DNA from: a virus
Lineage: Duplodnaviria > Heunggongvirae > Uroviricota > Caudoviricetes
Length of the DNA stretch: 17,788 bases
IMG/VR virus record: IMGVR_UViG_2870464427_000002
Direction: 5' to 3' (one strand)
Position 1 is the first letter of the stretch. The number at the start of each line of letters is the position of its first letter. Shown here in pieces: positions 766 through 17,788 of this stretch. The notes below the pieces were generated by a model, which had not been told where the DNA came from, did no database searches, and saw only the letters and a list, made by a program, of their open reading frames with translations. The position numbers and the translations under genes are program-made.

Positions 766-781
766 TGCCCGGCGTTATTTT
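754..781 (+). terminator. Rho-independent terminator of the nucleotidyltransferase gene
   Basis: CGCCGGGC (754-761), loop GTGAT, GCCCGGCG (767-774), then TTATTTT. The 8-bp stem is perfect, and the T-tract is present only on the plus strand. Confidence 0.6.
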
Positions 782-3516: not shown

Positions 3517-3518
3517 TA

Positions 3519-4235
3519 TTACTCCGGATATACAGACATAATTTCGGTGCTCCAGTATCCTGTGCCGACCTTCATCGGTTGGGATTGTGTAAGGCGATCG
3601 GGTTGATAAGGTAGTAGTTGGATATATTCCTCCACACAATAACCCGTCGCTAAAAATATTCCTGATGACTGGCTGAGGCTTTCTGCAACAGGAGGCAATA
3701 CTGTAATGACTTCCCCTCCTTGCATGGCGCTGCCAATAACTGGTATTGGGCTTCGATTAATAAGCCAAATAACAATGCTTTCCAGCTTTGAACGAACATT
3801 TTTATATTCATGAATTAATGTGATAAGTGCATTGAATTCATCTTCATTTAATCCTTTTTCCTCTAGTGTAATATTTACCTTAAAAAAATAAGCCCTTCCC
3901 CCATATTCAAACCATTCTGAAATAGTTCCGGGTAAGGAAAGTATTTCCAGCACTCGCCGTACCGCCCAAATTGTTCCTTTATATTTATGCAGTTCAATGG
4001 CTTGTTTAATTAACTCGCGTTTCTCCCGCTCATCGGTGGTAAATAACCAACCTTCCAGCCCCTGAACGTGAAATTGTTCTGCAAGGGCTGGTAATGCCGA
4101 AGCATCAACCAGGTCGACCAGATAAACCATCAACGCCGTCAGATCGAGTTGGGCAAAACGCTCGGCGGCGATGTTTGCCAGAATCGAAAAACGCTCATCG
4201 CTGGCAAGCGGCGGCGGTGGCAGCAATTTATCCAT
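3519..4235 (-). CDS. Baseplate/tail protein, P2 gpI-like (Mu gp48 slot), with a C-terminal extension
   Basis: I prefer ATG 4235 ([27 protein letters not shown]..., GGAG 9 nt upstream, 8-nt overlap with the J stop) over the tracked TTG at 4250. The LLPP..L..ER start and the position after J match gpI. At 238 aa it is longer than P2 gpI. Confidence 0.8.
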
Positions 4236-5343
4236 CGCTGACTCCGGCAATCGTGACGTCTATTGCAGTGCATTCCGCCCATTCATGCGCCTGCAAAATA
4301 CGTTTTGTAGGCATATTCAGCGCAACGTCATAGACGCCATCGACCTGTAACACTTTGATTATCTGGTTTGGCACAATGTCCTGCCCCAGATGTTTCTGCC
4401 GCTGTTGCGTCCAGAGGCTAATCGCTTTACGCGCCGCAGCCAGCGTTGTCTCCTGATCGGCGGTGGTAAACAGCATTAGCTGCGCACGGATCTCATACGG
4501 CACTCGAAGAGCGCATTTCGCACTCACTTTGTCGGTCAGCGGTCGTTTTTTCTCCTTGCTGACTTCTTGTTCAATCTGCGCCAGCAACTCCGTGCCGGGT
4601 AGACCATTCAGGGTTAGCGGGTAGATCTCCACGCAGCCTTCTGGCAATCCCTCGTCCGGCCCCAGTACTGCAACGTCAATAATCGACTGGCTAACAGAAA
4701 GCGTATGAAAGCGGTAGGCACCATAGCTGCCCGCATTACTAAAGCTTTCTGGTGCCAGTTGGATACGCTGGCGCAATGCGTCATCGCTCTCTTCACCGCA
4801 GCCGCCCGTTGACGCAGTCAGGTTGGTTACGTTGATGTCATAATGACCAATCCTGTCGACCAGTGCGCTAATTTGTGCAGGCTGCCAGCCGTTACCCTGT
4901 TCACCTGCTGCGAGGCTGGTGGCAGGAACGGCGATATGCAAACTCCTGGCCGGAAGCAGAACATCTTCATCGGTGGCGAACATCACGCTATCAGAGGCAC
5001 TGGCCCGCGTCCCCTGGGGAATCAGGATATTGCCGGGATACGCACTAACGACCGAAAACTGCAACGTCGTTTTTGCAGGCTGCGCAGGCAAACGGTGAAC
5101 TCCCACCAACTCCCCTAAATAATCCAGCATTGGCGCGCGGGAATACGCGACCAGGTTTTGTTTCGCCGCTTCCTGAATGGCGATGCGTACAAGGTTTTCA
5201 CGATAGGCAAACAGGTCGATGAGCAACCGCTCAGCCTGTGCCGGATAGAGTTTTTTACCACTGGCATCTTCGTATTGCGCAATCATCTCACTGGTAATTT
5301 GCGCAGGATCGCGGTCAATAAAATTGGGTTCGGCTATCGCCAT
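4228..5343 (-). CDS. Baseplate wedge protein, P2 gpJ / Mu gp47-like
   Basis: 371 aa. N-terminus FIDRDPAQITSEMIAQYEDASGKKLYPAQAERLLIDLFAYRE is typical of the Baseplate_J family. It overlaps the W stop by 10 nt. Confidence 0.9.
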   Translation of the reverse strand: MAIAEPNFIDRDPAQITSEMIAQYEDASGKKLYPAQAERLLIDLFAYRENLVRIAIQEAAKQNLVAYSRAPMLDYLGELVGVHRLPAQPAKTTLQFSVVSAYPGNILIPQGTRASASDSVMFATDEDVLLPARSLHIAVPATSLAAGEQGNGWQPAQISALVDRIGHYDINVTNLTASTGGCGEESDDALRQRIQLAPESFSNAGSYGAYRFHTLSVSQSIIDVAVLGPDEGLPEGCVEIYPLTLNGLPGTELLAQIEQEVSKEKKRPLTDKVSAKCALRVPYEIRAQLMLFTTADQETTLAAARKAISLWTQQRQKHLGQDIVPNQIIKVLQVDGVYDVALNMPTKRILQAHEWAECTAIDVTIAGVSDG

Positions 5344-5693
5344 AACACCTCCGTTGAGTTGATAACGCCGTCAGCGGCGCGCCATTGCACACGTAACGTC
5401 AGATGTTCGCCGTCGATTACTGGTGTCACCTTCAGCAACCGACAGCGCGGTTCCCACTGGCGGATGGCTTCCACCGACTCCCGTACCACATGCGGGATAG
5501 CCCGCTCGATGGGGTAATCGATGTAGTGCCACAAGTTGCTGCCAAACAGCGGTCTGTGGGGATCACTGCCGCGCGGTGTACGCAGAATGATGTGTATTGC
5601 CTGGTGAATATCATCCAGCCCGCAGACGTATTCTTCAGGCCGCTGCAAGGCCGGTTGCCAGTGCAGCGTTGAGGGGCGTGTTTTTGTGTTCAT
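5334..5693 (-). CDS. Baseplate wedge protein, GPW/gp25 family (P2 gpW-like)
   Basis: 119 aa. GLDDIHQAIHIILRTPRGSDPHRPLFGSNLWHYIDYP aligns with the P2 W core (ILRTP.GSR....YGS). No recognisable Shine-Dalgarno sequence precedes the ATG. Confidence 0.88.
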   Translation of the reverse strand: MNTKTRPSTLHWQPALQRPEEYVCGLDDIHQAIHIILRTPRGSDPHRPLFGSNLWHYIDYPIERAIPHVVRESVEAIRQWEPRCRLLKVTPVIDGEHLTLRVQWRAADGVINSTEVLWR

Positions 5694-5756
5694 GAGGGTA
5701 TTTTCGCCCTGAACGGGCTGTGGAGATATTAAAGCGATTTAGAAAACTGATTGATT

Positions 5757-5786
5757 AAAAAGAGAAAACCCGCCATCAGGCGGGTT
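5757..5786 (-). terminator. Intrinsic terminator inside the tail cluster, between gpV and gpW
   Basis: On the minus strand: AACCCGCC-TGAT-GGCGGGTT followed by TTCTCTTTTT. It starts 5 nt after the gpV stop. Confidence 0.6.
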
Positions 5787-5791
5787 AAAAG

Positions 5792-6493
5792 TCAGTGTGA
5801 ATGGTGGTTGGAGTTGCCACCGCTGTCCTGCAATGCGCCGCTGGCCTGAACGTTGCCGATCACGTTGACATTGCCGGTTATCGTGGCTGCGTTACCGATG
5901 CCTCCACTTCCTGCCATCCCGCCAAGCCAGGTGAGTTTTTTCATTACCGTGACGTTGCCAGTAAAGGTGCTCATGGGCGCATCTACCGTCACTGCTGCTG
6001 CTTTAACCTCGACCTTAGTGGCGTCGATGCTGACATCGGTCGCTTTAACATCGACGGTATCGGAAGTCACGGTGACGTGTTGGGCTTTAATCTCAACGTT
6101 GGGCGATGTCAGGCGGGTGCTGTCGATAACCTCAATCACGATTTTCTCGATACCGCCGTTAATCGTCAGCTGGTGCGTGCTGCGGTCATATTCAAACGCT
6201 GCGCCATCAGAAAACTGGACGTAACGTTTGTCGCGCGAGGCTACAGGCGCGGTGTCAACCGTAGAATAAACGGCACCCAGCACCACGCCATCTTCACCGT
6301 TATCGTCCAGCAGAACTTCCACTTGCTCGCCCATATCCGGTAGCCAGTAGTCTTTATTGTCCTGGGAATTGCGTTGAAGTACCGCAAGCCAGTTGCTCTT
6401 CAGATTGTCACACTCTGGTAGAGTGACCCGTACCCGAACACTGGTTTCGTCAATATCGCTGATAATCCCCGTTTGACGGGTTACTCCTTTCAT
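5792..6493 (-). CDS. Baseplate central spike, P2 gpV / Mu gp45-like
   Basis: 233 aa. The N-terminus is OB-fold-like (GIISDIDETSVRVRVTLPECDNLKSNWLAVLQR). The C-terminus has beta-helix-like repeats (VTVTSDTVDVKATDVSIDATKVEVKAAAVTVDA) and a His-rich tip, NSNHHSH. A strong RBS, AGGAGGAAAT, precedes the ATG. Confidence 0.9.
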   Translation of the reverse strand: MKGVTRQTGIISDIDETSVRVRVTLPECDNLKSNWLAVLQRNSQDNKDYWLPDMGEQVEVLLDDNGEDGVVLGAVYSTVDTAPVASRDKRYVQFSDGAAFEYDRSTHQLTINGGIEKIVIEVIDSTRLTSPNVEIKAQHVTVTSDTVDVKATDVSIDATKVEVKAAAVTVDAPMSTFTGNVTVMKKLTWLGGMAGSGGIGNAATITGNVNVIGNVQASGALQDSGGNSNHHSH

Positions 6494-6502
6494 ATTTCCT
6501 CC

Positions 6503-7543
6503 TTACTGGCTGGTCGCTGGCCCGCGTGACACGTCGATTTCAGTGGTATAGCCGCTGCGCACAAAACTGTGAGTAGATTTATCAATCAGCCACTGACCGG
6601 AAATCACGCCAAAATCGGTCAGTTCAATTTTATTGCCCGCCGTCAGTTCCGGGCAGCCCATCATTGTGAGCGTTCCGGTTTGCTGATATTCGTTGTGGCT
6701 GTCGAGTGCAGCGTTAGCCTTTGCCTGTGCTGCGCCAACGTCCGTCGCCCGACTGTTCAGTTTTAGCGTGTCGGCACTAGTGCCGACTCCACGGACAGAT
6801 GGTTTTTGCTGGCTGTTGTGAGTGTAGATAACCAGTTCTTTTTTCTTACTATTTTGATGCTGTACGGTGGCGTTCTTGTAGATCCGGTTAATGGTGTCTT
6901 TGAAGGTAAAATGAGAAACCTCTTTGCGATCGATCTTTTTCACAGGCGTCAGGCAGCGCAGCGTGGGTAAATGTGAAAAAATCAGCTCTTTTGTCGTCAC
7001 TTTTACGGCATAACCATATTCACTGGCCAGACGTTTGAGAAATCCGACATCGGTTTCACCATACTGCGTTACCCGGTCGATGGTGAGCGACTCGATTTTG
7101 CCCACCAGTTTCAGACCGTGCGTTTGGGCAATACGGCTGGCGATCGCCGAAAGCGTCGTTTCTTCAAAGCCCTGGCTGTTACGGGTGCGCAGCGCCTGAT
7201 TGACGGAAGTGGCGATGCCATCAATATTTACCGTGGAAGGTGGCGCTGAAATATCAATTTTATCAATAATATACTGGCCACAATCGAGCAGCTTTTCCCC
7301 CTGATAACCTATATGCAGCGCCAGCGTATCGCCTTTGCCGGGATACCACTCTTTTATCCAGCGTCCATCTGTGTCATCCAGTGTAATTGCGATGGTATCC
7401 GACTCGTTTTTGATGCTGTCGTGGTAACTGATGCTGGTGACATAGGGTGTGATGTCATAAGTGATATCTTTATGCCCATACCAGAGGGTAAAAATGGGCG
7501 TGAGTGTGGCAAAGACGCCACCAGTTACGCTCATCTCAGCCAT
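6503..7543 (-). CDS. Baseplate hub protein, P2 gpD / Mu gp44 (late control D) family
   Basis: 346 aa. Its position follows X and precedes V. The motifs ETDVGFLKRLASEYGY and the C-terminal GNKIELTDFG...GQWLIDKSTHSF...GYTTEI are typical of the gpD family. Confidence 0.88.
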   Translation of the reverse strand: MAEMSVTGGVFATLTPIFTLWYGHKDITYDITPYVTSISYHDSIKNESDTIAITLDDTDGRWIKEWYPGKGDTLALHIGYQGEKLLDCGQYIIDKIDISAPPSTVNIDGIATSVNQALRTRNSQGFEETTLSAIASRIAQTHGLKLVGKIESLTIDRVTQYGETDVGFLKRLASEYGYAVKVTTKELIFSHLPTLRCLTPVKKIDRKEVSHFTFKDTINRIYKNATVQHQNSKKKELVIYTHNSQQKPSVRGVGTSADTLKLNSRATDVGAAQAKANAALDSHNEYQQTGTLTMMGCPELTAGNKIELTDFGVISGQWLIDKSTHSFVRSGYTTEIDVSRGPATSQ

Positions 7544-7740
7544 GGTGGGATCTCCGATAAGGTTTTATTAACGGAAATGACCGGAATAATGAGCTGAATA
7601 CCGGAAGGCAGTACCGGGTAAATGGCTACATGTGGATTGGCGGCGATTATGCGTTCATAAGCCAGCGCATCACCGTAGTAATGCCATGCCAGGTTATCCC
7701 AGCGTTCGCCATCGGTGGTGATATGTTCAAGGTATCGCAT
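7531..7740 (-). CDS. Tail protein X (P2 gpX-like, LysM-like)
   Basis: 69 aa. TTDGERWDNLAWHYYGDALAYERIIAANPHV...LPSGIQLIIPVI matches the gpX pattern. TAATG overlap with the upstream gene. Confidence 0.85.
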   Translation of the reverse strand: MRYLEHITTDGERWDNLAWHYYGDALAYERIIAANPHVAIYPVLPSGIQLIIPVISVNKTLSEIPPWLR

Positions 7741-8693
7741 TACCAGCTCCTGGTAATGGTTACGGCAGCAAGCTGGCTCACTGCGGGAGTGGTTTGTTGT
7801 ACCGTTGTACGTGCCTGCTCAACCAACGACGTGGCTTTATCGAACGTCGCTTCGGCGATGTCGCTGGTAATGTCGTCGAAAAGCGCCTGAGCATGGTCAA
7901 CCAGCGTACTGGCGTCATTGGCGCAGTCCCGGATACCTGGCATGTTACCCAGTAAAGCTTTAATCTGCGCCGACAACGCTTTTGGTAGGCCTGCCAGCGT
8001 TTGCAGATCCATTGGCTGTTTAAACAGGGTTTCGATGGCGTCGATTGTCTTTTTCAATGACGTAATTATCTTTTCACACTTTTCTTTTAACGCTTTGGCC
8101 TCTTTAATCATTGCTTTCACTTTTGCCACCGTTTTTTTAATATCTTCAATGGATTGTGTCAGTTCATCCAGCATCTCTTTGGCCTTACGCATACCTTCTT
8201 CAATGGCGTTTAATATCTGATCAAACCAGGACTCCACCTTGTCGGGAAAATCGCTCGCCTTTTCCTCGATGTTGGGCTCCTGGGTGGTAATCGCCGGAGG
8301 TAAAAGTGGATTTTTAGGATCGCCGGTGTACTCCTGGAGCGACATCGTTCCGTTTTGGGCAATCACATTGCCCCAGGGATCGGTGTGCTGGTGGGTGGCG
8401 GTTAGCTCCGTAATCACAAACCAGCCGCGATAATCGCCATTGCCAAATACCAGTGCCATCGCCTTGTGAGCAAGCATGGCTTCACGCAGTCGGTTCAGCT
8501 CTGTTGTGGGCTGGCAAAACTGGCTGTGCAGGGAAAATTCCAGCGCCAGCATATCCAGCTTATCGCCAATAAACTGCACGCCGGGTTTGCCTTCTATACG
8601 GGCATGTGTGGCGTAATCCACGCCCATTGTGCTTTTAAAGCCGTCCCAGAATGTGACAACCTTAAATTCAATCTCTCCTAAAACGGCATACAT
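7740..8693 (-). CDS. gpU-like tail protein fused to a ~190-aa coiled-coil extension (occupies the Mu N/gp43 slot)
   Basis: The first ~125 aa (MYAVLGEIEFKVV...THARIEGKPGVQFIGDKLDMLALEFSLH...GNGDYRGWFVITELTATH) resemble P2 gpU. The rest is a K/E-rich helical repeat (MRKAKEMLDELTQSIEDIKKTVAKVKAMIKEAKALKEKCEKIITSLKKTIDAIE...). TAATG overlap with the tape-measure stop. Confidence 0.75.
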   Translation of the reverse strand: MYAVLGEIEFKVVTFWDGFKSTMGVDYATHARIEGKPGVQFIGDKLDMLALEFSLHSQFCQPTTELNRLREAMLAHKAMALVFGNGDYRGWFVITELTATHQHTDPWGNVIAQNGTMSLQEYTGDPKNPLLPPAITTQEPNIEEKASDFPDKVESWFDQILNAIEEGMRKAKEMLDELTQSIEDIKKTVAKVKAMIKEAKALKEKCEKIITSLKKTIDAIETLFKQPMDLQTLAGLPKALSAQIKALLGNMPGIRDCANDASTLVDHAQALFDDITSDIAEATFDKATSLVEQARTTVQQTTPAVSQLAAVTITRSW

Positions 8694-11068
8694 TAGGCAT
8701 ACCCCCGGCGCTGCTGCTGCGCCATTACATCGTTAATCATTCTTTCCAGTTCGCGTTTACTCATCGTCAACACGTTCTGAATCTCTTTAGTGGTGTTTTG
8801 TCCGTTACCCTGCACGGTAATTTGTGGCGAAAAATTCACCTGAACTTTTCCTGAGGAACGGGAAGGTAGCGTCGCCGCTTTGGTTACGGATTTACCAGGT
8901 AAAGAGGCAGATACGGGTTTGGCGGCTGTATTTTTTGCCGCTGGCGCCGATGACGGCGTAGCCGTTTTGCCGGATGGCGCGAGTTGTTTGCCCACCGGCG
9001 GCGTTAAAATCGCACCGGCAACGCCTGGAACAACGGTCGCGGGGGAGACGGATGCGGTATTAGTCGTGCTTGTAATAGCTGTAGCCGATCCTTCTGTACT
9101 AATACCCATCGTGGTTTTTAGCCAGTCTGGGATGGCGTTTTTTACCTGATCAATAATGCCTTTCAGAGCGGGGAAGGCATTCATTATGCCGTCAACCAGA
9201 CTGCCCAGAAGATTGCTGCCGAACTCGCTAAAACTTGCAGGCATCTCGACACCAAACCAATTCATCACACTGGAAAAGGCGCTATAGAACAACTCCAGCG
9301 GTGACCAGTCGAGAATCAACCGACAAATTCCTGCAATGCCGCCGTCAAAGGCCGTGGTGATACGTTGCCAGATGGTCGAAAAGAACCTGGAGATAGGCTC
9401 CCAGTTGCGATAAATCAGATAAGCAGCGCCCGCAATCGCAGTGATGACCAGACCAATGGGATTCATCAGTAGCACCCGGCCTAGTGAGAGAACGGTCCGA
9501 CCAACCAGTTTCAATGTTCCAATCAGGCCACGACCAAGCAGTTGCGTTAGCCATTTTGCGCCGCCACCCAATGACTTAACCGCTGATAGCATCTTACTTG
9601 CCCCGCCTGTGAGCGCCAGACTTGCCTTGACTTTCAGGAAGATATCGACCAGACGAATAAACGGCGAGGTGATGAGGTTCGCGCCCAGCTTTAAAACATT
9701 CAGCGCACCGTTAAACAGCCAAATCGCCCCGACGATTTTCGCGATGTTTTGCACCAGTGTCGGGTGCTCACGTAGCCAGGCGCTGAACTGACGAATAACC
9801 GGCGTAAGGCTTTGTGCCAGCTCGCCAATCAGCGGCATTAATTGCAAGCCAATGCTGAGCCATAAATCATTTAACGCCAGCTGTAACGCTTTAGTCTGTT
9901 CAATGGGCGAGGCCATTTGCGCAGAAAAGTCGGCATCAATCAGATTCTTGCTGGTGGCTTGCATGGCAGAGGCTTTTAACTGGCGATATTCCTCCATATT
10001 CGCCAGCATAGGGGCCAGGAATTCCACTGTTTGCGCATCGCCGAACATTTCCCCCAGATTAAACTGCGTCACCATCGATTGCAGCGCATTGCTGCGGGCA
10101 GATAAATCTTCGATCTGCATGGTGCGTTTGAAGGTGTCGAGGATCGCCGGATTCATCTTCTCAAGCTGCATTTGCACGATATGAGTCATGGCTTCGCTAA
10201 CACCCATACCGTTTTGCTGATGCTCAAGCAGAGAGCCTTGCAGATCAACGCCCTGGCTGACGAACCAGTAATCGGTTTTTTTCGAAAAGGTGGTTTGCAG
10301 AAAGTGGTCGAAATTCTCCGCCGCCGCACTGGCGCTGGCCCCGTTTTTCATGGCGATCTGCATGGTGGCGGTCAGTTCAGCCATACCTTCCAGACCCTGA
10401 GCGCCGGTTTTACCTGCAAATTTCTCTATCCACTGCGTTTGTTCAGCAATGGCAGGCCCACCGCTTTTGCTAATGCCGTACATCATGTTTTGCGCGGCGT
10501 GGAAATTTTCCGGGGCAATATTCAGTCGATCATGGGTTGCGAGCGCGGCATTCGCCCATGTTTCAGCACTTTCGCGCGTGGCGGTGGCAGCTTTGGCGAT
10601 CTCCGGCATATAACGGTTGAGATCCTGTATCGACGACAAATTGCCTTCGATCAGCGTTTGGGCTGCGTTCTGTAAGGTGGTCTGCTGCTGGTTAAAATCC
10701 ATGCTCCAGTCGCGCAGATTAAGGCTGAGCGTCTCGCGGGTTGTAGCATTCATCCCACCTTTGGTCGCCATATTGACCATGTTGTCCTGAAACTCATACG
10801 GCAACTTCCAGTCGGGGGCTTCAACATTGAATACTTTGCTAAATTGCCCGGCAAATGTTTGGGTTTTCTCCATCAGATTAGCGCGGCTGCGGCTATTTTC
10901 CTCCAGGCGGAGAGCGGAATCGGCAAGCTGCTGCGTTAGTTTGATAACTGTCGCCTGCTGAGTAGAGAGAGTTAACAATGTTCTGGCGTTGAGTGAGCCG
11001 TAACGGGCTATTGCCTGCGTCAACGTCTCATTACGCGCCTGAAGCTGGGTAATAATATCGTTGGCCAA
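8693..11068 (-). CDS. Tail tape measure protein
   Basis: 791 aa. Helical N-terminal half, a cluster of hydrophobic segments at about residue 400-640, and an Ala/Pro/Ser/Thr-rich linker near the C-terminus. It sits after the chaperone gene. The only available start is TTG 11068, because a stop lies 4 codons upstream, and the SD (AGAGAA) is weak. Confidence 0.88.
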   Translation of the reverse strand: MANDIITQLQARNETLTQAIARYGSLNARTLLTLSTQQATVIKLTQQLADSALRLEENSRSRANLMEKTQTFAGQFSKVFNVEAPDWKLPYEFQDNMVNMATKGGMNATTRETLSLNLRDWSMDFNQQQTTLQNAAQTLIEGNLSSIQDLNRYMPEIAKAATATRESAETWANAALATHDRLNIAPENFHAAQNMMYGISKSGGPAIAEQTQWIEKFAGKTGAQGLEGMAELTATMQIAMKNGASASAAAENFDHFLQTTFSKKTDYWFVSQGVDLQGSLLEHQQNGMGVSEAMTHIVQMQLEKMNPAILDTFKRTMQIEDLSARSNALQSMVTQFNLGEMFGDAQTVEFLAPMLANMEEYRQLKASAMQATSKNLIDADFSAQMASPIEQTKALQLALNDLWLSIGLQLMPLIGELAQSLTPVIRQFSAWLREHPTLVQNIAKIVGAIWLFNGALNVLKLGANLITSPFIRLVDIFLKVKASLALTGGASKMLSAVKSLGGGAKWLTQLLGRGLIGTLKLVGRTVLSLGRVLLMNPIGLVITAIAGAAYLIYRNWEPISRFFSTIWQRITTAFDGGIAGICRLILDWSPLELFYSAFSSVMNWFGVEMPASFSEFGSNLLGSLVDGIMNAFPALKGIIDQVKNAIPDWLKTTMGISTEGSATAITSTTNTASVSPATVVPGVAGAILTPPVGKQLAPSGKTATPSSAPAAKNTAAKPVSASLPGKSVTKAATLPSRSSGKVQVNFSPQITVQGNGQNTTKEIQNVLTMSKRELERMINDVMAQQQRRGYA

Positions 11069-11158
11069 AATTGTTTCTCTTTAAATATTGATAATGGCCC
11101 GCTGGTTATTTTTCTAAAAAAAGGGGCAGGGAAGAAATAAACCTGACGGGCTTGGGAA

Positions 11159-11183
11159 ACTCGCAGACATCAGGTCTGCGAGT
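11159..11183 (-). other. Perfect 10-bp stem-loop in the chaperone-to-tape-measure spacer
   Basis: ACTCGCAGAC / 5-nt loop / GTCTGCGAGT. The UGA that closes the E'-like frame lies in the loop. No proper U-tract follows. Confidence 0.5.
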
Positions 11184-11391
11184 CATATTCGATTTTTATT
11201 TGGGCGCTGGCTTCATCCAGCCAGTTGCTAAAGTCATCGACGGTAAGGGCGTCTATCTCACTGGGTGGAAAGCGAAACCATCTCGCCAGTAACGCCATCG
11301 CTTGCCATAACAGTGGCGGATTCTGTAGCCACGCTAAGCATGGATTGAAATCGTTTCTGCAATGCCTGGTAATCCAGCAAATCCATTTCAG
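11170..11391 (-). CDS. E'-like extension frame of the tail chaperone, reachable only by a +1 (= -2) frameshift
   Basis: A stop-free frame of 73 codons plus its stop, with no useful start codon. It overlaps the last 134 nt of the gpE-like gene and continues 88 nt beyond it, encoding ...PPSEIDALTVDDFSNWLDEASAQIKIEYDSQT. The span from 11575 to 11170 is 406 nt (3n+1). Confidence 0.5.
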   Translation of the reverse strand: MKWICWITRHCRNDFNPCLAWLQNPPLLWQAMALLARWFRFPPSEIDALTVDDFSNWLDEASAQIKIEYDSQT

Positions 11392-11575
11392 CTAAATCTT
11401 CTGGCACCAGTCCGGTCATTGCCGCCATTAGCGGTTCATCCCACTCTTCAGGTTTTTCGCTGATCCGGCGCGCGTTGCGCATATCTTTTACTTTCAGGCG
11501 ACGTAATTGCAGAGTGTTAATTACGTCTCCCGCCGCTGAAGTAAACGGGAACTGTAAGATATAATGTTCTTTCAT
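11258..11575 (-). CDS. Tail assembly chaperone, P2 gpE-like
   Basis: 105 aa sitting between the tube and tape-measure genes. FPFTSAAGDVINTLQLRRLKVKDMRNARRIS...LVPEDLAEMDLLDYQALQKRF fits the gpE/gp41 chaperone family. RBS is AAGGA. Confidence 0.8.
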   Translation of the reverse strand: MKEHYILQFPFTSAAGDVINTLQLRRLKVKDMRNARRISEKPEEWDEPLMAAMTGLVPEDLAEMDLLDYQALQKRFQSMLSVATESATVMASDGVTGEMVSLSTQ

Positions 11576-11601
11576 TTTGTGTCCTTATTTATTTTGCAAA
11601 G

Positions 11602-11621
11602 TTCGGGGCCGTAGCCCCGAA
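11602..11621 (-). terminator. Stem-loop between the tube and chaperone genes (weak terminator or attenuator)
   Basis: TTCGGGGC / 4-nt loop / GCCCCGAA. On the minus strand it is followed only by CTTTGC, so termination is probably partial at most. Confidence 0.4.
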
Positions 11622-11625
11622 TAAC

Positions 11626-12150
11626 TTAGCCACCGATGTTATTGCGATAGGTACTTAATTGATCCACACCATTAACCCGGAAAATATTGGCCATATAATC
11701 AAGTTCAAGCAGCGTTTCACCATCAACTACTTGTTTAATATAAGTGCAACCAAAGGCGCTGCTGAATTCCGGGTTTTCATTCTGTTTAAATGTGCCCAGT
11801 GGATTCTTTTTAAACATCACGGTTAAATGTGTCACTAGCGCTAATTGATTCGCTTTCCCCTGGGAGTTATAGCAATCAATACTGGAGCGGCACTGTAATG
11901 CAACCGCCTGCCACGGGTTTGCCGTTTTACGCATTACGTCCTGATAGAAGGAGTTCCATTTAATTTCGCCCTCCAGTTTATCGAAACCCGCCGGGAGTTC
12001 GATTTTACCCACCATGCCCAGTGCTTTATGCTCCTGCATAATTAAACTGACATCCGGCAATTTAATTTCGGTTGCACGACCTAAAAGGTTATTACCATCG
12101 AGATAAATATTGGCGTTGGTAATACGGTTAATTTGAATTTTTCCAGCCAT
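11626..12150 (-). CDS. Tail tube protein (P2 FII-like)
   Basis: 174 aa directly after the sheath gene (TAATG overlap). ITNANIYLDGNNLLGRATEIKLPDV...GMVGKIELPAGFDKLEGEIKWNSF matches the contractile-tail tube family. Confidence 0.9.
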   Translation of the reverse strand: MAGKIQINRITNANIYLDGNNLLGRATEIKLPDVSLIMQEHKALGMVGKIELPAGFDKLEGEIKWNSFYQDVMRKTANPWQAVALQCRSSIDCYNSQGKANQLALVTHLTVMFKKNPLGTFKQNENPEFSSAFGCTYIKQVVDGETLLELDYMANIFRVNGVDQLSTYRNNIGG

Positions 12151-13573
12151 TAGCTATTGCTCTCCAGAGAGACTAAATATTCAGAAGTAATTTCAGTTTC
12201 AAACGTCAGACGTTCCAGCGGCGGCGGCGGGGTGAATTTATAGCTCAGCAATAAATGCCCAGCGCTGAGTTCAGTCGGTGAATTTCGCGCCGGATCGTAC
12301 CAGCATTCAAAGCCAAGCAGTGCGCCGTCGGCAATCAGCTTACGGCCCCAGGTATTTACCGATTCGGTCAGGGCATCAATCAGCGCCTGATTAATCGGCA
12401 TATCAATATACTGCTGACTGAAATAACGGATTGACTCATTAATTACATCGCCTGTCCGGCGGACGTTTTCAAAGTTACGCATATGGGTCACGGTAGGCCA
12501 CGCTGCAGTGCGGTTGCCCCACAAGCGCAGACCAGAGCCGTAACTATTGAAAATAGTGGTAATGCCGTTTTCGTTTAGCTGATTCACTTCGCTTTGTGGA
12601 TCATCAATCATTGCGGAAAGCGAACGTTCAATACCGGTAATACCCTGAATTTCTTGGTTTGAGTTGCTCCACCAGAAACCTTTTTCGAGGTCTACTTTGG
12701 CACGTAGCCCGGCAGCGCGCGAAGAGAGCGGTTCGAGAACTTCCTGGTTAGTGATGCCATCGTAAACTTTGACGTGTGGGTAACATAAACGCGCACGATC
12801 AGAGCTGGTGTTGAAGTTGATAGCCCCTTGCGAACCGCGTCCTGCCAATACCTGCTGGAATGTCGTCCCAATCGGGGCATCAATGTAGGTAATCGCACCA
12901 AGTTTTTCCGCTTGTGCAATCAGCTCTGTAGTTACTGATTTTTGCGTACAGAACACGGGAGCAAGCAGGATTTTGGCGTAGAAACCATACAGGTTATAGG
13001 TGTCCTGTAGCAGTTTCATCCCCGTGCGGTCGCCTGCGGTATTTACGGTACCGATAATATCGGCTGCGGTGACCTTTGTAGGGTCGCACCAGGAATAATA
13101 GGCACAAACTTTCGCACCAGGAGGAATGTCGGCTCCTTTACGGGTAATTATGCCTGTTTGTTCATCTACGCTAAATGCTGCGGTGTTAAAGGTTGATGAA
13201 TTTGATGAAGAGGGCTTTAGTACCACGTTACGCACATTGCGGTGAGCGAGCTTCGCCTGGTTGTTAGCATCAAAAGTGATACTCTCATTGCTGATGTTGG
13301 AGCCATGTTTTGCCGGATCCAGCACGTTAATCACCACCACCGTACCGGCACCGTGGTCATAAATTGCCTTCAGTGCCTGTGGGATCGTAAAGTTAGCCTG
13401 AGTCGAGCCAAACTGCGCAGCATCGCTTTCAGAAAGGCATAATGTTGGTTTATTTACCGGACCGCAGGGGCTGTACCGATTAAAGCGATGACGGCGGATT
13501 TTACCGCTTTAACCGGACGCGGGCCGGTTTCAATTTCAATAGTTTCTACACCGTGCAGATAATTAGCTGCCAT
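12150..13573 (-). pseudogene. Tail sheath gene (P2 FI / Mu L family) broken by a 1-nt frameshift
   Basis: ATG 13573 opens MAANYLHGVETIEIETGPRPVKAVKSAVIALIGTAPAVR*, with the stop at 13454-13456. The sheath sequence continues in the -1 frame as PCGPVNKPTLCLSESDAAQFG...VVVINVLDP down to 12150. One extra C in the C4 run (plus-strand GGGG, 13467-13470) restores a 474-aa ORF. Confidence 0.8.
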
Positions 13574-13760
13574 GTACAATTTCCTCTACGTTATTTTGTT
13601 CTTCCTGAGTGATGACAGGAGTCAGATGATTGCGGGCAATCATGGTCATGACCCACTCGTTGTCTTCTGGCAGATCAATTTCACTGTTCGGCCACAATAA
13701 GATTTCTTGTCCATCGGCAAGGGTGACGCCGCTTGCTGGGCCGTTGTAGATGTATTTCAT
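13563..13760 (-). CDS. Small tail-associated protein (Mu-like gp38 / DUF2635-type slot)
   Basis: 65 aa. ATGA overlap with the upstream gene, and its end overlaps the sheath start by 11 nt. Size and position match the small ORF that precedes the sheath gene in Mu-like tails. Family recall is from memory only. Confidence 0.55.
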   Translation of the reverse strand: MKYIYNGPASGVTLADGQEILLWPNSEIDLPEDNEWVMTMIARNHLTPVITQEEQNNVEEIVHGS

Positions 13761-14212
13761 TCAGTTTCCTCGTAGTTAACTTCCGTAAGCAGGGGAAGAT
13801 CCGTGCTTTCCTGTTCAGCGATAAATAGCGAGCTGGTCGCCATTTCCAGGATGTAGCGGCAGAAACCGCCGCTCTCACCCGTATTAATTTCTTTTTCAAG
13901 CCAAAGAAGACGATCGCAATCAGGAAGCTGAAGGCCACCCAATGCGCTGCGTATGTGATCAAGTGCGTTTAATGCATCACAATTTTTGCCAACAATAACG
14001 GTGGCGGTTAAGCGGAGTATTTGCTGTTGCACGATGGCATTACTGCTTTCGGGCGTAGCAAAGACAGAACCGCTATAATTAATAATCACTGCAACTCGTT
14101 GTGTCTGTGGAATATATTTCTGGGCATCCTTAGATGAAATAAATATATCCATTTCGGAGTTGTGTTCACGTAATCTGGTCACAACAGAATTCATTACAGA
14201 TAAAATTTCCAT
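13757..14212 (-). CDS. Tail completion/terminator-like protein (Mu-like gp37 / DUF1834-type slot); first gene of the tail operon
   Basis: 151 aa. It is the first ORF after a strong terminator and a promoter-like region. The N-terminus ILSVMNSVVTRLRE resembles gp37-family starts. The assignment rests on position plus a weak pattern match. Confidence 0.5.
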   Translation of the reverse strand: MEILSVMNSVVTRLREHNSEMDIFISSKDAQKYIPQTQRVAVIINYSGSVFATPESSNAIVQQQILRLTATVIVGKNCDALNALDHIRSALGGLQLPDCDRLLWLEKEINTGESGGFCRYILEMATSSLFIAEQESTDLPLLTEVNYEETE

Positions 14213-14275
14213 ATAGGCTGTACCTTAATTACCGCTCACTTCGTTATCGTTGAAATGTATTCTGAAGCAGCGAAG

Positions 14276-14284
14276 GTGAAGAAT
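14276..14284 (-). promoter_or_regulatory. ATTCTTCAC motif upstream of the tail operon (candidate activator-dependent promoter element)
   Basis: The identical 9-mer occurs upstream of the lysis operon at 15627-15635. Here TCTTCA-N17-TACATT gives a poor -35 and a fair -10. ATTAAAAG lies immediately 5' of the motif. Confidence 0.3.
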
Positions 14285-14319
14285 CTTTTAATGTGATTTA
14301 GAGAAAAAATTGAATGGTT

Positions 14320-14353
14320 AAAAAAATCCCCACCCTTACATAAGGGTGGGGAT
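14320..14353 (-). terminator. Strong intrinsic terminator separating the lysis cassette from the tail operon
   Basis: On the minus strand: ATCCCCACCC-TTATGTAA-GGGTGGGGAT followed by TTTTTT. It starts 3 nt after the stop of the 104-aa gene. A T-run is also present on the plus strand, so it could act in both directions. Confidence 0.8.
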
Positions 14354-14356
14354 TTT

Positions 14357-14671
14357 TCAATAACTGCCACGTTGTAACAGCTCGATTTTGCTATATAAGG
14401 CATCCAGCTTCGCTTCTAATACTGCTTGCCCACGAAGATAATCTTCTCTGCGGACATAATGCAGCGGAAGCTCGGCACGAAATTCGAGAAATTCTCTTTC
14501 CAGTTTCGACCAACTTGTTTCTGATTCCCGGCGCGCGTTTTCCAGAGATTCAAAACGCTCATTAAGTCGTTTTTCAATTTGTGCTAACAGCAGTTTTCCG
14601 GCAGCAAACATTAATCCAACGAAGGAAAGCATAAGGGAGATCACTTCCCAAAAATCGATACTGAGTTTCAT
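14357..14671 (-). CDS. N-terminal TM plus coiled-coil lysis accessory protein (i-spanin-like or Mu gp25/DUF2730-like)
   Basis: 104 aa. One TM segment (WEVISLMLSFVGLMFAAGKLLL) followed by heptad-like helices (IEKRLNERFESLENARRESE...LEAKLDALYSKIELL). RBS is AGAGGGG. It is the third gene of the lysis cassette. Confidence 0.55.
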   Translation of the reverse strand: MKLSIDFWEVISLMLSFVGLMFAAGKLLLAQIEKRLNERFESLENARRESETSWSKLEREFLEFRAELPLHYVRREDYLRGQAVLEAKLDALYSKIELLQRGSY

Positions 14672-14683
14672 CGGCCCCTCTGA

Positions 14684-15289
14684 TTAATGAAGACAGCTTG
14701 CCTGTCCCCAGAGTAAATAGCGGGCGGCATGTTGATAGAGGATCATCTTTGGATAGCGACGATTTTCTCGCCAGTTCGTGGCGCTGCGCCCGGCGTTGAC
14801 TTGCTCAACATGACCAAACCAGCTAGTGGCATCTAACCCTTTGGATGCAGCCAGTTTTTTATCCCGGTTAACCCACCCCTGACCGCCGTTATAGGCGCTT
14901 AGGGTAAACGCCATACGCTGACAATCATTTTTCGCAGAGATGTTTTTCCACAAATGCTGGTCATATTGCACCAGCGCGCGAATCGCCCAGGTTGGGTTAT
15001 ACGGTTTGTTTTCACGCAATTGTGGATACAACTGGCTTATCCATGTCGCTGTAGCAGGCATAAATTGCGCCATACCTTGTGCGCCAACGGGGGAACGTAC
15101 CATTGGCTGCCAGGCGGACTCCTGGTGTAATTGCCCGGCAAAGTCGGCCACTGGGGCATTCAGCCCCCAGACTTCTCGAGCTGTACGAATTAGTTCGTTT
15201 CGCCATGCCAGAGAGGCTCTCGGCGGTTCAGAGGCGTTGAGTGGGAAAAGAACGAAAATAATCATAGACGCGATATATTTCAGCCACAT
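14684..15289 (-). CDS. Lytic transglycosylase (SLT domain) endolysin with an N-terminal signal or signal-anchor
   Basis: I prefer ATG 15289 (MWLKYIASMIIFVLFPLNASEPP...), 2 nt after the upstream stop. The tracked start at 15388 overlaps the holin-like gene. SLT motif: LHQESAWQP...GAQGMAQFMP.TA...SAYNGG. Confidence 0.85.
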   Translation of the reverse strand: MWLKYIASMIIFVLFPLNASEPPRASLAWRNELIRTAREVWGLNAPVADFAGQLHQESAWQPMVRSPVGAQGMAQFMPATATWISQLYPQLRENKPYNPTWAIRALVQYDQHLWKNISAKNDCQRMAFTLSAYNGGQGWVNRDKKLAASKGLDATSWFGHVEQVNAGRSATNWRENRRYPKMILYQHAARYLLWGQASCLH

Positions 15290-15291
15290 CA

Positions 15292-15579
15292 CTATAGCCC
15301 TAACGCGACGGAAAGGCAGACGGCAGCAACGATGATAGCCCGGCGAATCATTGCCGCCGCGCAGCAACGCGGTTCCTTCCAGGGGCAAAAAGAGTCAGGC
15401 CGTGCCCAGGGGAACAAACTGCGATCGAGCCAGTATCCCAGCACCGCGGAAAGCGAAACCAGGCTTAGTTTATAAATGACGACCGGGATTTGTGCTGAAG
15501 AGGTCCAGCCGATCACGACAAACAGCGCGACGGAAGCGACCAGCCAACCGGAAAGCCGGGGAAGAGTGACTTTTTTCAT
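15292..15579 (-). CDS. Small three-TM membrane protein, putative holin
   Basis: 95 aa with three hydrophobic segments (WLVASVALFVVIGW; IPVVIYKLSLVSLSAVLGYWL; AIIVAAVCLSVALGL). It is the first gene of the cassette, immediately upstream of the endolysin. RBS is AGGAG. Confidence 0.5.
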   Translation of the reverse strand: MKKVTLPRLSGWLVASVALFVVIGWTSSAQIPVVIYKLSLVSLSAVLGYWLDRSLFPWARPDSFCPWKEPRCCAAAMIRRAIIVAAVCLSVALGL

Positions 15580-15626
15580 ACGGTATCTCCTGATAAGTGA
15601 GCGTTTAGTGTCGCCAGAACCCGCCA

Positions 15627-15635
15627 GTGAAGAAT
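15627..15635 (-). promoter_or_regulatory. ATTCTTCAC motif upstream of the lysis operon (candidate activator-dependent promoter element)
   Basis: Same 9-mer as at 14276-14284, lying 48 nt upstream of the holin-like ATG. ATTAAAG lies 8 nt further 5'. Confidence 0.3.
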
Positions 15636-15853
15636 GAAAAAAGCTTTAATAAATAAGTTTAAAAAATAGATTCTCTATAAATGAACATGCCCGCTAATAA
15701 ATCCACTCAGCAATTAAAGAGCAAAAGGTGACCTCGCGAATAAGCGCGTCATTATGCAGGGAAAAGATGATGGTGAATCGTAGGAATAGTCAGTAGTTAT
15801 TTGATTTTTAAAGTTTGTTTAAGAAAGTCAGCGACTGTGAGGGAAACGATCTT

Positions 15854-15881
15854 TTTACACTACAAGTAAAAATAATACTGT
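15854..15881 (+). promoter_or_regulatory. Candidate rightward sigma70 promoter overlapping the left SOS half-site
   Basis: TTTACA (15854-15859), a 16-nt spacer, then TACTGT (15876-15881). The -10 candidate is the left arm of the reconstructed LexA box. In the present state it points into the IS. Confidence 0.3.
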
Positions 15882-15889
15882 ATGTGTAT
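15876..15889. promoter_or_regulatory. Left half of an IS-split LexA (SOS) box
   Basis: TACTGT+ATGTGTAT directly abuts the IS left end. Confidence 0.7.
15882..15889. repeat. Target-site duplication, left copy (ATGTGTAT)
   Basis: Identical 8-mer at 17206-17213, immediately outside both inverted repeats. Confidence 0.85.
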
Positions 15890-15919
15890 GGGTCTTCCCT
15901 TGTTGTGGTGGCTGAAGGC
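15890..15919. repeat. IS left inverted repeat
   Basis: GGGTCTTCCCTTGTTGTGGTGGCTGAAGGC, compared with the reverse complement of the right end, GGGTCTTCCCCGATCATGGTGGGAAGGC. The first 10 nt are identical and the TGGTGG and GAAGGC blocks are shared. Confidence 0.8.
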
Positions 15920-15956
15920 ATGATAATGGTGTATTTAATCGCCAGAGGTCACCGCC

Positions 15957-17177
15957 ATGGACGAAAAGTCCCTCTACGCTCATATTCTCAACCTGTCCGA
16001 TCCGTGGCAGGTAAAGTCCCTTTCTCTCGATGAAAATGCCGGTTCTGTTACTGTCACTATTGAGATCGCTGAAAACACCCGGCTAGCCTGTCCGACCTGC
16101 GGTAAATCCTGTTCTGTTCACGATCACCGTCATCGTAAATGGCGCCATCTTGATACCTGCCAGTTCACCACTATTGTTGAAGCCGATGTTCCACGAATTA
16201 TGTGTCCGGAGCATGGCTGCCTGACGTTGCCTGTTCCGTGGGCTGGCCCCGGAAGCCGGTATACGTTGCTATTCGAATCGTTCGTTCTCTCATGGCTGAA
16301 AATCAGCACCGTTGATGCTGTCAGGAAGCAACTTAAGCTCAGTTGGAATGCGGTTGACGGCATTATGACCCGGGCAGTTAAGCGAGGTCTTGCCCGGATA
16401 AAAAAGCCATTATCCGCCCGTCATATGAATGTGGATGAGGTCGCCTTTAAAAAAGGACATCGTTACATAACGGTGATCTCCGATCGCGATGGTCGGGCGC
16501 TGGCCTTAACGGATGATCGCGGCACAGAGAGTCTTGCCGGCTATCTTCGCACGCTCACTGATGGGCAGTTGCTGGCTATCAAAACGCTCTCAATGGACAT
16601 GAACGCGGGCTATATAAGAGCAGCGCGTATCCACTTACCCAGTGCGGTTGAGAAAATCGCCTTTGACCGCTTCCATGTGGCGAAGCAACTGGGCGAGGTA
16701 GTTGATAAAACCCGTCAGAATGAACATCCGCACCTCCCTGTTGAAAGCCGACACCAGGCAAAAGGAACCCGCTTCCTGTGGCAGTACAGCGATAAGTGGA
16801 TGACCGAATCCCGGCAGGAAAAGCTGATGTGGCTGCGTGCACAGATGAAGCTGACGAGCCAGTGCTGGGCGCTGAAAGAGCTGGCAAAGGATATCTGGAA
16901 CAGGCCATGGAGCGAGGAAAGACGGAGTGACTGGCAGAGATGGTTGGCGCTGGCGGCTAACAGTGACGTTCCCATGATGAAAAATGCCGCGAAAACGATA
17001 GGAAAAAGGCTGTACGGGATCCTGAATGCGATGCGACACAGTGTCTCAAACGGAAATGCGGAGGCACTTAACAGCAAGATCAGGCTGCTGAGGATAAAAG
17101 CCAGGGGATACCGAAACCGGGAGCGCTTTAAACTGGGGGTGATGTTCCACTACGGAAAGCTGAATATGGCGTTCTGA
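15957..17177 (+). CDS. ISL3-family transposase
   Basis: 406 aa. N-terminal zinc-finger (CPTCGKSCSVHDHRHRKWRHLD), a DDE_Tnp_ISL3-type core (MNVDEVAFKKGHRYITVISD) and the C-terminal GNAEALNSKIRLLRIKARGYRNRERF. The stop lies just inside the right inverted repeat. Confidence 0.9.
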   Translation: MDEKSLYAHILNLSDPWQVKSLSLDENAGSVTVTIEIAENTRLACPTCGKSCSVHDHRHRKWRHLDTCQFTTIVEADVPRIMCPEHGCLTLPVPWAGPGSRYTLLFESFVLSWLKISTVDAVRKQLKLSWNAVDGIMTRAVKRGLARIKKPLSARHMNVDEVAFKKGHRYITVISDRDGRALALTDDRGTESLAGYLRTLTDGQLLAIKTLSMDMNAGYIRAARIHLPSAVEKIAFDRFHVAKQLGEVVDKTRQNEHPHLPVESRHQAKGTRFLWQYSDKWMTESRQEKLMWLRAQMKLTSQCWALKELAKDIWNRPWSEERRSDWQRWLALAANSDVPMMKNAAKTIGKRLYGILNAMRHSVSNGNAEALNSKIRLLRIKARGYRNRERFKLGVMFHYGKLNMAF

Positions 17178-17205
17178 GCCTTCCCACCATGATCGGGGAA
17201 GACCC
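17178..17205. repeat. IS right inverted repeat
   Basis: GCCTTCCCACCATGATCGGGGAAGACCC, the reverse-complement partner of 15890-15919. Confidence 0.8.
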
Positions 17206-17213
17206 ATGTGTAT
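17206..17213. repeat. Target-site duplication, right copy (ATGTGTAT)
   Basis: Identical to 15882-15889. Confidence 0.85.
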
Positions 17214-17219
17214 ACAGTA
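17206..17219. promoter_or_regulatory. Right half of an IS-split LexA (SOS) box
   Basis: ATGTGTAT+ACAGTA directly abuts the IS right end. Confidence 0.7.
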
Positions 17220-17240
17220 TCGTGTAAAATGATACACCTG

Positions 17241-17271
17241 TTGACAAGAAACATAACGCAAACAATATATC
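17241..17271 (+). promoter_or_regulatory. Candidate sigma70 promoter for the Mor-like gene
   Basis: A perfect -35 TTGACA (17241-17246) followed 17-19 nt later by AATATATC. There is no perfect -10. It would give a leader of about 165 nt. Confidence 0.35.
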
Positions 17272-17440
17272 TATTTCATGAATTTATGGCGTTCATTAAT
17301 ATTAAAAATTTATATTTTTGTTAATTGTTTATTTGTTTGTTGAATGTATTGAGTAGCAGTAATGACAACTGCTTAGCGTATATCCGTGGTTTTACACGCA
17401 TCGGGTCTTATTCAGGATGCAAGATATATGGAGATGAAAA

Positions 17441-17788
17441 ATGATACGAAAATCAAAAGAGATGGCCCGGACACCGGAGATCATTAACGACCTGGCTTTT
17501 CATGCATCGCAAGTTCTGATTGAAAGCATCAATCTCGACAGTTCATCGGCAGAAAATGTGGGCTTTGCCATTGCCGACCGAATGATGCGTAACTGGGGCG
17601 GACAAAGCATTTATTTCCCTAAGGGGATCTCCGGACGAGCATCGGAGCGTGACTACCAAATCTATAGCGAGTGCGATGGGCGCAACTACGCCGAATTAGC
17701 GAAGAAATATAATCTGACGCTGCAATGGATTTATAAGATTGTGAAACGCGTACATGCGGAAAAGCAACAGCGCCGCAGTAATTCGTAA
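17441..17788 (+). CDS. Mor/C-family transcriptional activator (Mu middle/late regulator family)
   Basis: 115 aa ending in TAA at the window edge. NWGGQSIYFPKG...SERDYQIYSECDGRNYAELAKKYNLTLQWIYKIVKR matches the Mor family core and its C-terminal HTH. RBS is GGAG. It is divergent from the lysis/tail cluster. Confidence 0.85.
   Translation: MIRKSKEMARTPEIINDLAFHASQVLIESINLDSSSAENVGFAIADRMMRNWGGQSIYFPKGISGRASERDYQIYSECDGRNYAELAKKYNLTLQWIYKIVKRVHAEKQQRRSNS

Follow-up and report, generated by a model that had tools for sequence, protein, structure and literature searches.

Features of the locus

We analysed a stretch of 17,788 nucleotides recorded as IMG/VR virus IMGVR_UViG_2870464427_000002 (hereafter the window), which proved to be an Escherichia coli chromosomal segment essentially identical to that of strain EC0585 (L218). 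Its minus strand carries a cluster of lysis and contractile-tail genes, from which a gene for a Mor-family transcription activator diverges. Between the two lies ISKox3, an insertion sequence (IS) of the ISL3 family, bordered on each side by one half of a predicted LexA box (Table 1). We describe the element, the box that it splits and a survey of other insertions of its kind, and consider how such a target might be read.

Table 1. Positions of the element, its target site and the surrounding genes in the window
Feature	Position	Strand	Basis or remark
Holin / lytic transglycosylase / Gp37 / sheath / tube / tape-measure / baseplate / tail-fibre cluster	780-15579	-	
TTTACA, -35 of a plus-strand promoter proposed earlier (with TACTGT as -10)	15854-15859	+	Sequence
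Left half-site of the split LexA box, TACTGT	15876-15881		Sequence; conservation
Predicted minus-strand promoter, -10 TACAGT	15882-15877	-	Overlaps the left half-site
Target-site duplication, left copy ATGTGTAT	15882-15889		Equals the LexA-box spacer; present once in the empty site
ISKox3 (ISL3 family), 1316 bp	15890-17205	+	100% match to annotated ISKox3 copies
Left terminal inverted repeat (IRL)	15890-15911		Imperfect, about 22 bp
ISL3-family DDE transposase, 406 amino acids, the single open reading frame of the IS	15957-17177	+	Pfam, NCBIfam
Right terminal inverted repeat (IRR)	17184-17205		Imperfect, about 22 bp
Target-site duplication, right copy ATGTGTAT	17206-17213		Sequence reading
Right half-site of the split LexA box, ACAGTA	17214-17219		Sequence; conservation
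Predicted minus-strand promoter, -35 TTTACA (TGTAAA on the plus strand)	17223-17228	-	Promoter scan, conservation
Mor-family transcription activator gene, 115 amino acids	17441-17788	+	Pfam Mor, E = 7e-38

The transposase matches the Pfam domains Zn_ribbon_ISL3, HTH_Tnp_ISL3 and DDE_Tnp_ISL3 (E = 1e-55, 3e-13 and 2e-11 across the ISL3-type matches) and the NCBIfam model transpos_ISL3 (323 bits against a cutoff of 180). The terminal repeats read GGGTCTTCCCTTGTTGTGGTGG (IRL) and GGGTCTTCCCCGATCATGGTGG (IRR, reverse complement). The DDE type, the short terminal repeats, a length within about 1.2-1.5 kb and an 8-bp duplication are all those of an ISL3 element. Many RefSeq copies annotated as "ISL3-like element ISKox3 family transposase" share 100% identity with the IS over its 1316 bp; most of them reside on conjugative plasmids (IncX3 and others) of Escherichia, Klebsiella and Enterobacter. 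The element is ISKox3 itself, a member of the ISL3 family, the name following the RefSeq-annotated copies and not the ISfinder reference sequence. It has zero mismatches to an IncX3 plasmid copy (L217), to a copy beside tisB and to a second copy at the present locus (L002), both described below.

At the left junction, TACTGT is followed by ATGTGTAT and by the start of the element, GGGTCTTCCC; at the right junction, the end of the element, GGGAAGACCC, is followed by a second copy of ATGTGTAT and by ACAGTA. On re-reading, these sequences and their coordinates agreed exactly with those of a preliminary description of this DNA, which had proposed a simple insertion of an ISL3-family IS with an 8-bp duplication. 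Removing the IS and one copy of the duplication rebuilds TACTGTATGTGTATACAGTA.

To find the empty site, we joined positions 15400-15889 to 17214-17788 in silico (1065 bp) and compared the product with 5426 complete E. coli genomes. It matched 196 of them, 186 over at least 80% of the query, with contiguous 100% identity in the 15 matches listed. In strain 2016C-3878 (L001), RefSeq annotation places the empty site between a lysC-adjacent Mor-family gene and the divergent holin/tail operon. The preliminary description had made a contiguous 20-mer in IS-free relatives its own test, and E. coli provides it. The uninterrupted palindrome in these genomes shows that, before the insertion, the Mor gene lay next to the holin/tail cluster, as that description had also held. 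Since the empty site contains the 8-mer once, the duplication does not belong to a longer pre-existing repeat. The insertion was thus a simple one.

The IS-bearing junction of this locus was found in only two complete genomes, EC0585 and isolate 648 (L002). L002 differs from the window at 27/600 and 15/580 positions of the two flanks and at 0/1316 positions of the IS. Both its box, TACTGTATATGTATACAGTA, and its duplication, ATATGTAT, differ from those of the window. Because the IS is identical while the flanks have diverged and the duplications differ, the window and L002 represent, on this comparison, two independent insertions into one predicted operator.

The interrupted palindrome as a LexA operator

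The rebuilt TACTGTATGTGTATACAGTA departs from the consensus TACTGT-N8-ACAGTA at 2 central positions. We scored it with an approximate heterology-index matrix built from E. coli operators, so that all values given here are approximate. On this scale the rebuilt box scores 2.7-3.3, better than the recA operator (4.7 in the same matrix), and each of the present junctions scores about 20. The near-consensus box of the preliminary description therefore holds within the approximation of this matrix. The pattern CTGT-N8-ACAG is absent from the interrupted window (0 occurrences, with 0.12 expected by chance), so that a perfect rebuilt box is not a chance pattern.

We then compared 26 related loci, defined as loci encoding a Mor protein 81-100% identical to that of the window. 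The box was kept in 23/26, about 237-262 nt upstream of mor (309 nt in one), with invariant arms (CTGTAT...ATACAG) around a variable centre of 4-6 nt. Invariant arms with a variable centre are expected of a protein-binding palindrome. Thus, by its conserved position and fixed arms, the 20-mer behaves as a real LexA operator, with putative LexA binding, in line with its original identification. Upstream of Mor homologues that are about 45% identical (L245-L270; 20-40-kb prophage contigs, full Mu-like phages), CTGT-N8-ACAG was not found. Since these loci lack the box, direct LexA control appears to be specific to the head-less tail-cluster lineage. With the half-sites split apart, a LexA dimer would be unable to bind them.

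Across the intergenic region of the empty site a single promoter-like match was found, TTTACA-N16-TACAGT on the minus strand (L001 20505 to 20478). Its -10 element and spacer lie inside the box, it is directed toward the holin/tail operon, and its -35 element is found at a fixed +3 to the right of the box in 14/16 unique related loci, the surroundings of which have diverged. Consensus match and conservation together predict a sigma-70-type promoter that is overlapped by the LexA box and reads into the holin/tail operon. The IS separates the -35 from the -10 element of this promoter, which are now 1.3 kb apart. Damage-inducible transcription of the lysis/tail operon from it would be lost, and the mor gene retains its proximal upstream region.

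The preliminary description had instead pointed to a plus-strand promoter, TTTACA-N16-TACTGT, reading into the transposase gene. We do not retain this proposal: the sequence matches the consensus at 8/12 positions, below the threshold of the promoter scan, and its TTTACA occurs in just 4/16 related loci. A hybrid outward promoter made of the IRL end and the retained -10 element was also considered and rejected on reading the sequence, as the candidate -35 hexamers match at no more than 3/6 positions.

ISKox3-type elements are flanked by CTGT in a fixed register

Other chromosomal ISKox3 copies matched the junction query 20 nt past the IS end, which prompted us to read their flanks. The window, L002, L003 and L004 all have the arrangement CTGT-N8, IS, N8-ACAG. 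We therefore compiled 213 unique 40-nt flanks of ISKox3-type ends from E. coli, other Enterobacterales, prophages and metagenomes, leaving out one symbiont genome (Candidatus Symbiopectobacterium). CTGT was located exactly 12 nt from the IS end in 177/213 flanks and CTG in 191/213, while CTGT at any other offset was found in 0-5 of the 213. Read toward the IS, the consensus is TACTGTATATATAT, the same on the IRL and the IRR side, and corresponds to half of the LexA consensus plus its spacer.

The same register was evident in separate parts of the collection. CTGT was in register in 82/106 unique metagenome flanks. The left flanks of 27 IMG/VR loci read CTGT in 26 and CTGG in 1, and loci with the right end present read ACAG or its one-base variant ACAT. 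Relatives in the genome collection with 62-100% transposase identity and the same terminal repeats had the same flanks. Of the complete elements (the symbiont again left out), 36 have a perfect 8-bp duplication; an exact CTGT-N8-ACAG is restored in 30 of these, and 29 have an approximate heterology index of 6 or less. With a defined motif in a fixed register across independent insertions, ISKox3 behaves as a target-site-specific IS.

Orientation is not similarly constrained. Although the IS and the gene pointed the same way at all of the first five distinct E. coli sites, the dinD site was also occupied in the opposite orientation, and overall the neighbouring SOS gene lay on the IRL side in 18 cases and on the IRR side in 15, indicating no bias.

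These counts change how the position of the IS in the window is to be understood. The preliminary description had in effect treated the dyad-axis insertion as a remarkable accident; with most flanks in the same register, this position is the normal and highly specific target of the IS. Its account of the insertion, the rebuilt operator and the original adjacency stands, while it had missed both the relevant promoter and the targeting by the IS clade.

ISKox3-type copies (88-100% transposase identity) were also present on contigs labelled Arthrobacter, Chloroflexota metagenome-assembled genome, Vagococcus and Chryseobacterium (L033, L043, L045, L077 and L085), with CTGT-type flanks in the readable L033, L043, L045 and L077. 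These labels likely result from contamination or mis-binning.

Genes and operators at the insertion sites

We scanned 141 crude open reading frames that read away from the insertion sites against Pfam. Matches included Peptidase_S24 (12, of the UmuD/repressor type), DinI (7) and GyrI-like (SbmC; 3), together with 1 each of RecA, IMS (DinB), SulA, SSB, YdjM and UvrB. Judged by these domains, the insertions adjoin classic SOS genes.

RefSeq annotation was used to read a further twelve chromosomal copies in E. coli. Insertions were immediately upstream of dinD in five genomes, of sbmC in two, and of umuDC and tisB (L282) in one each; two more were at prophage sites and one was inside a cyclic di-GMP (c-di-GMP) phosphodiesterase gene (L281 1801-3116, E. 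coli PRO_A-1374-6M-A_ESBL). The dinD, sbmC and umuDC insertions are loci L271-L276, L279 and L280. As the dinD insertions comprise three IS variants (0, 1 and 21 mismatches) in both orientations, the dinD box was hit independently. On the left flank CTGT was in register in 12/12 copies, and in all eleven copies that are complete the duplicated 8 bp are the N8 of CTGT-N8-ACAG; the remaining copy, L278, is truncated and its right end is missing.

Individual sites illustrate the range of replicons. The copy between ivbL and tisB (L003 2521-3836; L282) occupies TACTGT TTATTTAT ACAGTA and splits the tisAB/istR LexA box; its IS-bearing junction is present in 190/5426 complete E. coli genomes. A prophage copy occupies CACTGT ATGTTTAT ACAGTA. 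The copy on the IncX3 blaNDM plasmid occupies AGCTGT ATGCATAT ACAGTA, upstream of a two-gene unit in which a small hypothetical gene precedes one for an S24 peptidase.

Three sites combine exact arms with GC-rich spacers and have an approximate heterology index of 12-17 (L281, L072 and L119). The intragenic site in the c-di-GMP phosphodiesterase gene, L281, reads TACTGT CCGGGAAA ACAGGA, and that of Klebsiella pneumoniae ATCC 13883, L072, reads CACTGT CCTTCGGA ACAGGT. Since exact-arm sites with GC-rich spacers are used, these insertions suggest that recognition depends on the arms and the distance between them.

How the target might be recognized

The reading we favour, at a probability of roughly 0.85, is that ISKox3 belongs to an ISL3 clade that prefers the gammaproteobacterial LexA operator TACTGT-N8-ACAGTA as its target, and that in the window it split the operator of a tailocin-like operon. 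The register, the symmetry and the equality of the 8-bp stagger with the spacer place strand transfer at the inner edges of the CTGT and ACAG arms, and each insertion leaves one half-site on either side of the IS. Most likely, the transposase complex itself would read the two arms symmetrically around the 8-bp stagger. It would favour a flexible, AT-rich spacer, and the operator would probably be most accessible with LexA off.

Two sets of observations bear on whether this recognition is intrinsic to the transposase. In favour are the insertion inside the operator footprint, not beside it, the use of the exact-arm sites with GC-rich spacers, one of them intragenic, and, as a weak negative, the lack of sequence similarity between transposase and LexA. 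A role for LexA or for spacer flexibility is instead favoured by the strong AT pattern of the spacer in the flank logo and by the near-absence of random CTGT-N8-ACAG sites, which are expected to be at least as common as operators in a 5-Mb genome.

Some findings weigh against a preference of this kind. About 10% of the 213 flanks have no CTG at the expected position, so that the preference is strong and not absolute. A 71%-identical relative in Candidatus Symbiopectobacterium endolongispinus, with about 30 copies in one genome (L052-L070, L076, L079-L081, L086 and L090), has CTG in register in 27/46 flanks. Most of these copies have non-matching duplications and many have exchanged flanks, consistent with recombination between copies, but a few are true off-target insertions, with the duplications ACTTCAAC and TGACTGCC. 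Copies seen in genomes have already been through selection, which could have acted after insertion to produce part of the excess of intergenic, AT-rich operators over random CTGT-N8-ACAG sites. Finally, laboratory selection recovered ISKox3 in capsule genes of K. pneumoniae, for which duplications, and no flanks, were reported (PMC12057282, PMC11836320).

Among other explanations, we considered that targeting depends on LexA, with the transposase tethered to operator-bound LexA or sensing a LexA-induced distortion of the DNA. This would fit a target logo in which every part of the LexA motif reappears, down to the TA that precedes CTG and the spacer of alternating A and T. It would also fit the finding that nearly all sites are functional SOS operators and not random CTGT-N8-ACAG, and that the E. 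coli operators used (tisB, umuDC, dinD and sbmC) are those closest to consensus. However, the IS inserts within the 20 bp that LexA covers, so that bound LexA should stand in its way, and known tethered systems insert beside the tether. The GC-rich exact-arm sites, at an approximate heterology index of 12-17, also speak against it. Moreover, Pfam detected no LexA-like domain in the transposase, and BLASTP of the transposase against LexA returned a single, non-significant match, which is a weak negative. We therefore consider LexA-dependent targeting unlikely.

In a related possibility, target choice would be coupled to the SOS state of the cell, in that bound LexA either recruits the transpososome or, more plausibly, blocks the site until it is cleaved. 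We hold this coupling to be doubtful. If it is true, transposition would coincide with DNA damage, and with every hop another operator would escape LexA control for good.

An explanation to which we assign very little probability is random or AT-biased insertion followed by selection that keeps splits of LexA operators, these doing no harm or bringing a benefit, such as the silencing of a suicidal tailocin or of tisB. Genomic copies are indeed survivors, none of the 14 chromosomal copies read is upstream of E. coli recA or lexA, and ISKox3 was recovered from capsule genes under laboratory selection. Yet selection does not explain a base-pair-exact register or a duplication that always equals the spacer. 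The same register is found on plasmids, prophages and metagenome contigs, and an intragenic CTGT-N8-ACAG site is used. Even in the capsule gene wzy, insertions in 26 colonies had two duplication sequences only, indicating hot spots (PMC12057282).

Chance can be set aside almost entirely. An ordinary ISL3 hop into AT-rich intergenic DNA might have happened to fall on the dyad axis, as ISL3 elements generally make 8-bp duplications and the searchable literature does not call them operator-specific, but this is refuted by the census (177/213 flanks with CTGT in the same register against 0-5 elsewhere) and disfavoured by the second, independent insertion into the same operator in another lineage. 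The idea that TACTGT...ACAGTA are extended terminal repeats of the element and hence no LexA-box target, for which one might cite the 37-nt imperfect inverted repeat that 15875-15911 and 17184-17220 form with the half-sites included, is refuted by the intact 20-mer where the IS is absent (E. coli genomes; 23 related loci), by an 8-mer between arm and IS that varies by site and is repeated directly, not inverted, and by the dinD, umuDC, sbmC and tisB boxes at ISKox3 sites, which are long-known chromosomal operators.

Relation to known systems

The searchable literature mentions ISKox3 in two roles only, riding on IncX3 blaNDM plasmids or mutating capsule genes. We found nothing relevant there on the target specificity of ISL3 elements or on insertion into LexA or SOS boxes, and no link of ISKox3 or ISL3 to LexA boxes, with papers in subscription journals and the ISfinder notes lying outside the search.

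Several IS are specific for host repeats, including IS1397 and ISKpn1 (palindromic units/bacterial interspersed mosaic elements, BIME), members of the IS110 family (repetitive extragenic palindromes, REP) and the IS1111-attC group. They resemble ISKox3 in inserting specifically into a short, often palindromic, multicopy intergenic motif, which offers the element harmless insertion points in every related host. However, their targets are structural or recombination repeats, and they belong to other IS families, some with different chemistry. Unlike these elements, ISKox3 has the operator of a global repressor as its predicted target, and each insertion would remove a gene from a stress regulon.

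Proteins guide target selection in other systems, such as Tn7 with TnsD and TnsE and the yeast elements Ty1, Ty3 and Ty5. These offer a possible analogy if LexA marks the site. Whereas they insert beside the bound factor, ISKox3 goes into the middle of the operator and shows no evident module for interaction with LexA.

If ISKox3 prefers LexA operators, as we propose, it lands where a global stress repressor binds, so that each transposition would alter regulation. The genes beside insertions include umuDC-like mutagenic polymerases, the persister toxin gene tisB, dinD, sbmC, prophage regulators and the tailocin-like cluster of the window. ISKox3 rides on globally spread IncX3 blaNDM (NDM carbapenemase) plasmids; a cell that acquires such a plasmid would therefore also receive an element capable of rewiring its SOS regulon, and DNA-damage control sites of gut bacteria would be split repeatedly. 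The specificity would also explain how the element finds safe intergenic sites in any gammaproteobacterial chromosome, plasmid or phage, and insertions would naturally mark LexA operators to the base pair in genomic and metagenomic sequence. Finally, ISKox3 offers a tractable system for studying how a DDE transposase reads a palindromic target.

The tail cluster and the mor gene

Pfam matches in the tail cluster include Holin_2-3, SLT, Gp37, Phage_sheath_1 and Phage_tube. By the RefSeq annotation of L001, no head, integrase or replication genes lie between yjbD and lysC, and mor, divergent from the cluster, adjoins lysC. Since such genes are not annotated, this is a head-less lysis and contractile-tail cluster, either R-type tailocin-like or a cryptic tail island. 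We found no literature description of this E. coli cluster as a tailocin.

Tailocins under SOS control and late regulation of the Mu type are represented by the R-pyocins with PrtR/PrtN, carotovoricin, the Dickeya tailocins and Mor/C of phage Mu. The present cluster resembles R-type tailocins in its head-less contractile tail with lysis genes, its dedicated activator gene and its predicted control by DNA damage. In the R-pyocin system (PrtR/PrtN), a LexA-like repressor acts on the activator gene; here, by contrast, a canonical LexA box covers the predicted promoter between the Mor-family gene and the holin/tail operon.

The cluster itself has lesions that vary among strains. At 13467-13470 the window reads GGGG, where L001 and EC0585 have GGGGG; the missing G shifts the frame of the sheath gene (12150-13574, minus strand) near its 5' end, and may reflect either a genuine inactivating mutation or an error in sequencing the homopolymer. 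At 9544, in the tape-measure gene (8693-11068, minus strand; L001 13293-15668), the window has G and strain 2016C-3878 has A. RefSeq annotates the gene as a pseudogene with an internal stop in 2016C-3878, and it is intact in the window. Since the sheath and tape-measure defects differ by strain, different strains carry different lesions of the tail cluster.

A block, GTGAGGGAAACGATC-TTTTT, is located at about 15836-15856, 20-40 nt to the left of the LexA box. Partly diverged, it recurs in most relatives of the Mor locus, including L239, L243 and L244, which have no box. It could be a Mor-dependent promoter element.

Derivatives with cargo

Some elements with the same ends carry an additional gene. 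A derivative of about 1885 bp (L105 2023-3907; also L040, L042, L049 and L166) has a gene for a 172-amino-acid DUF1706 protein between IRL and the transposase gene; DUF1706 is the family of the colibactin self-protection protein ClbS. The L105 derivative occupies the box upstream of an operon of dinI-like and umuD-like genes. Another derivative, of 1761 bp (L044 2437-4197; also L182 and L075), has a gene for a 133-amino-acid protein downstream of the transposase gene. The first 60 residues of this protein match fosfomycin-resistance glutathione transferases (FosA/FosLL models) with scores below the curated cutoffs, because only 60 amino acids were scanned. With its ClbS-like (DUF1706) and FosA-like derivatives, the ISKox3 platform can thus also put cargo beside SOS promoters.

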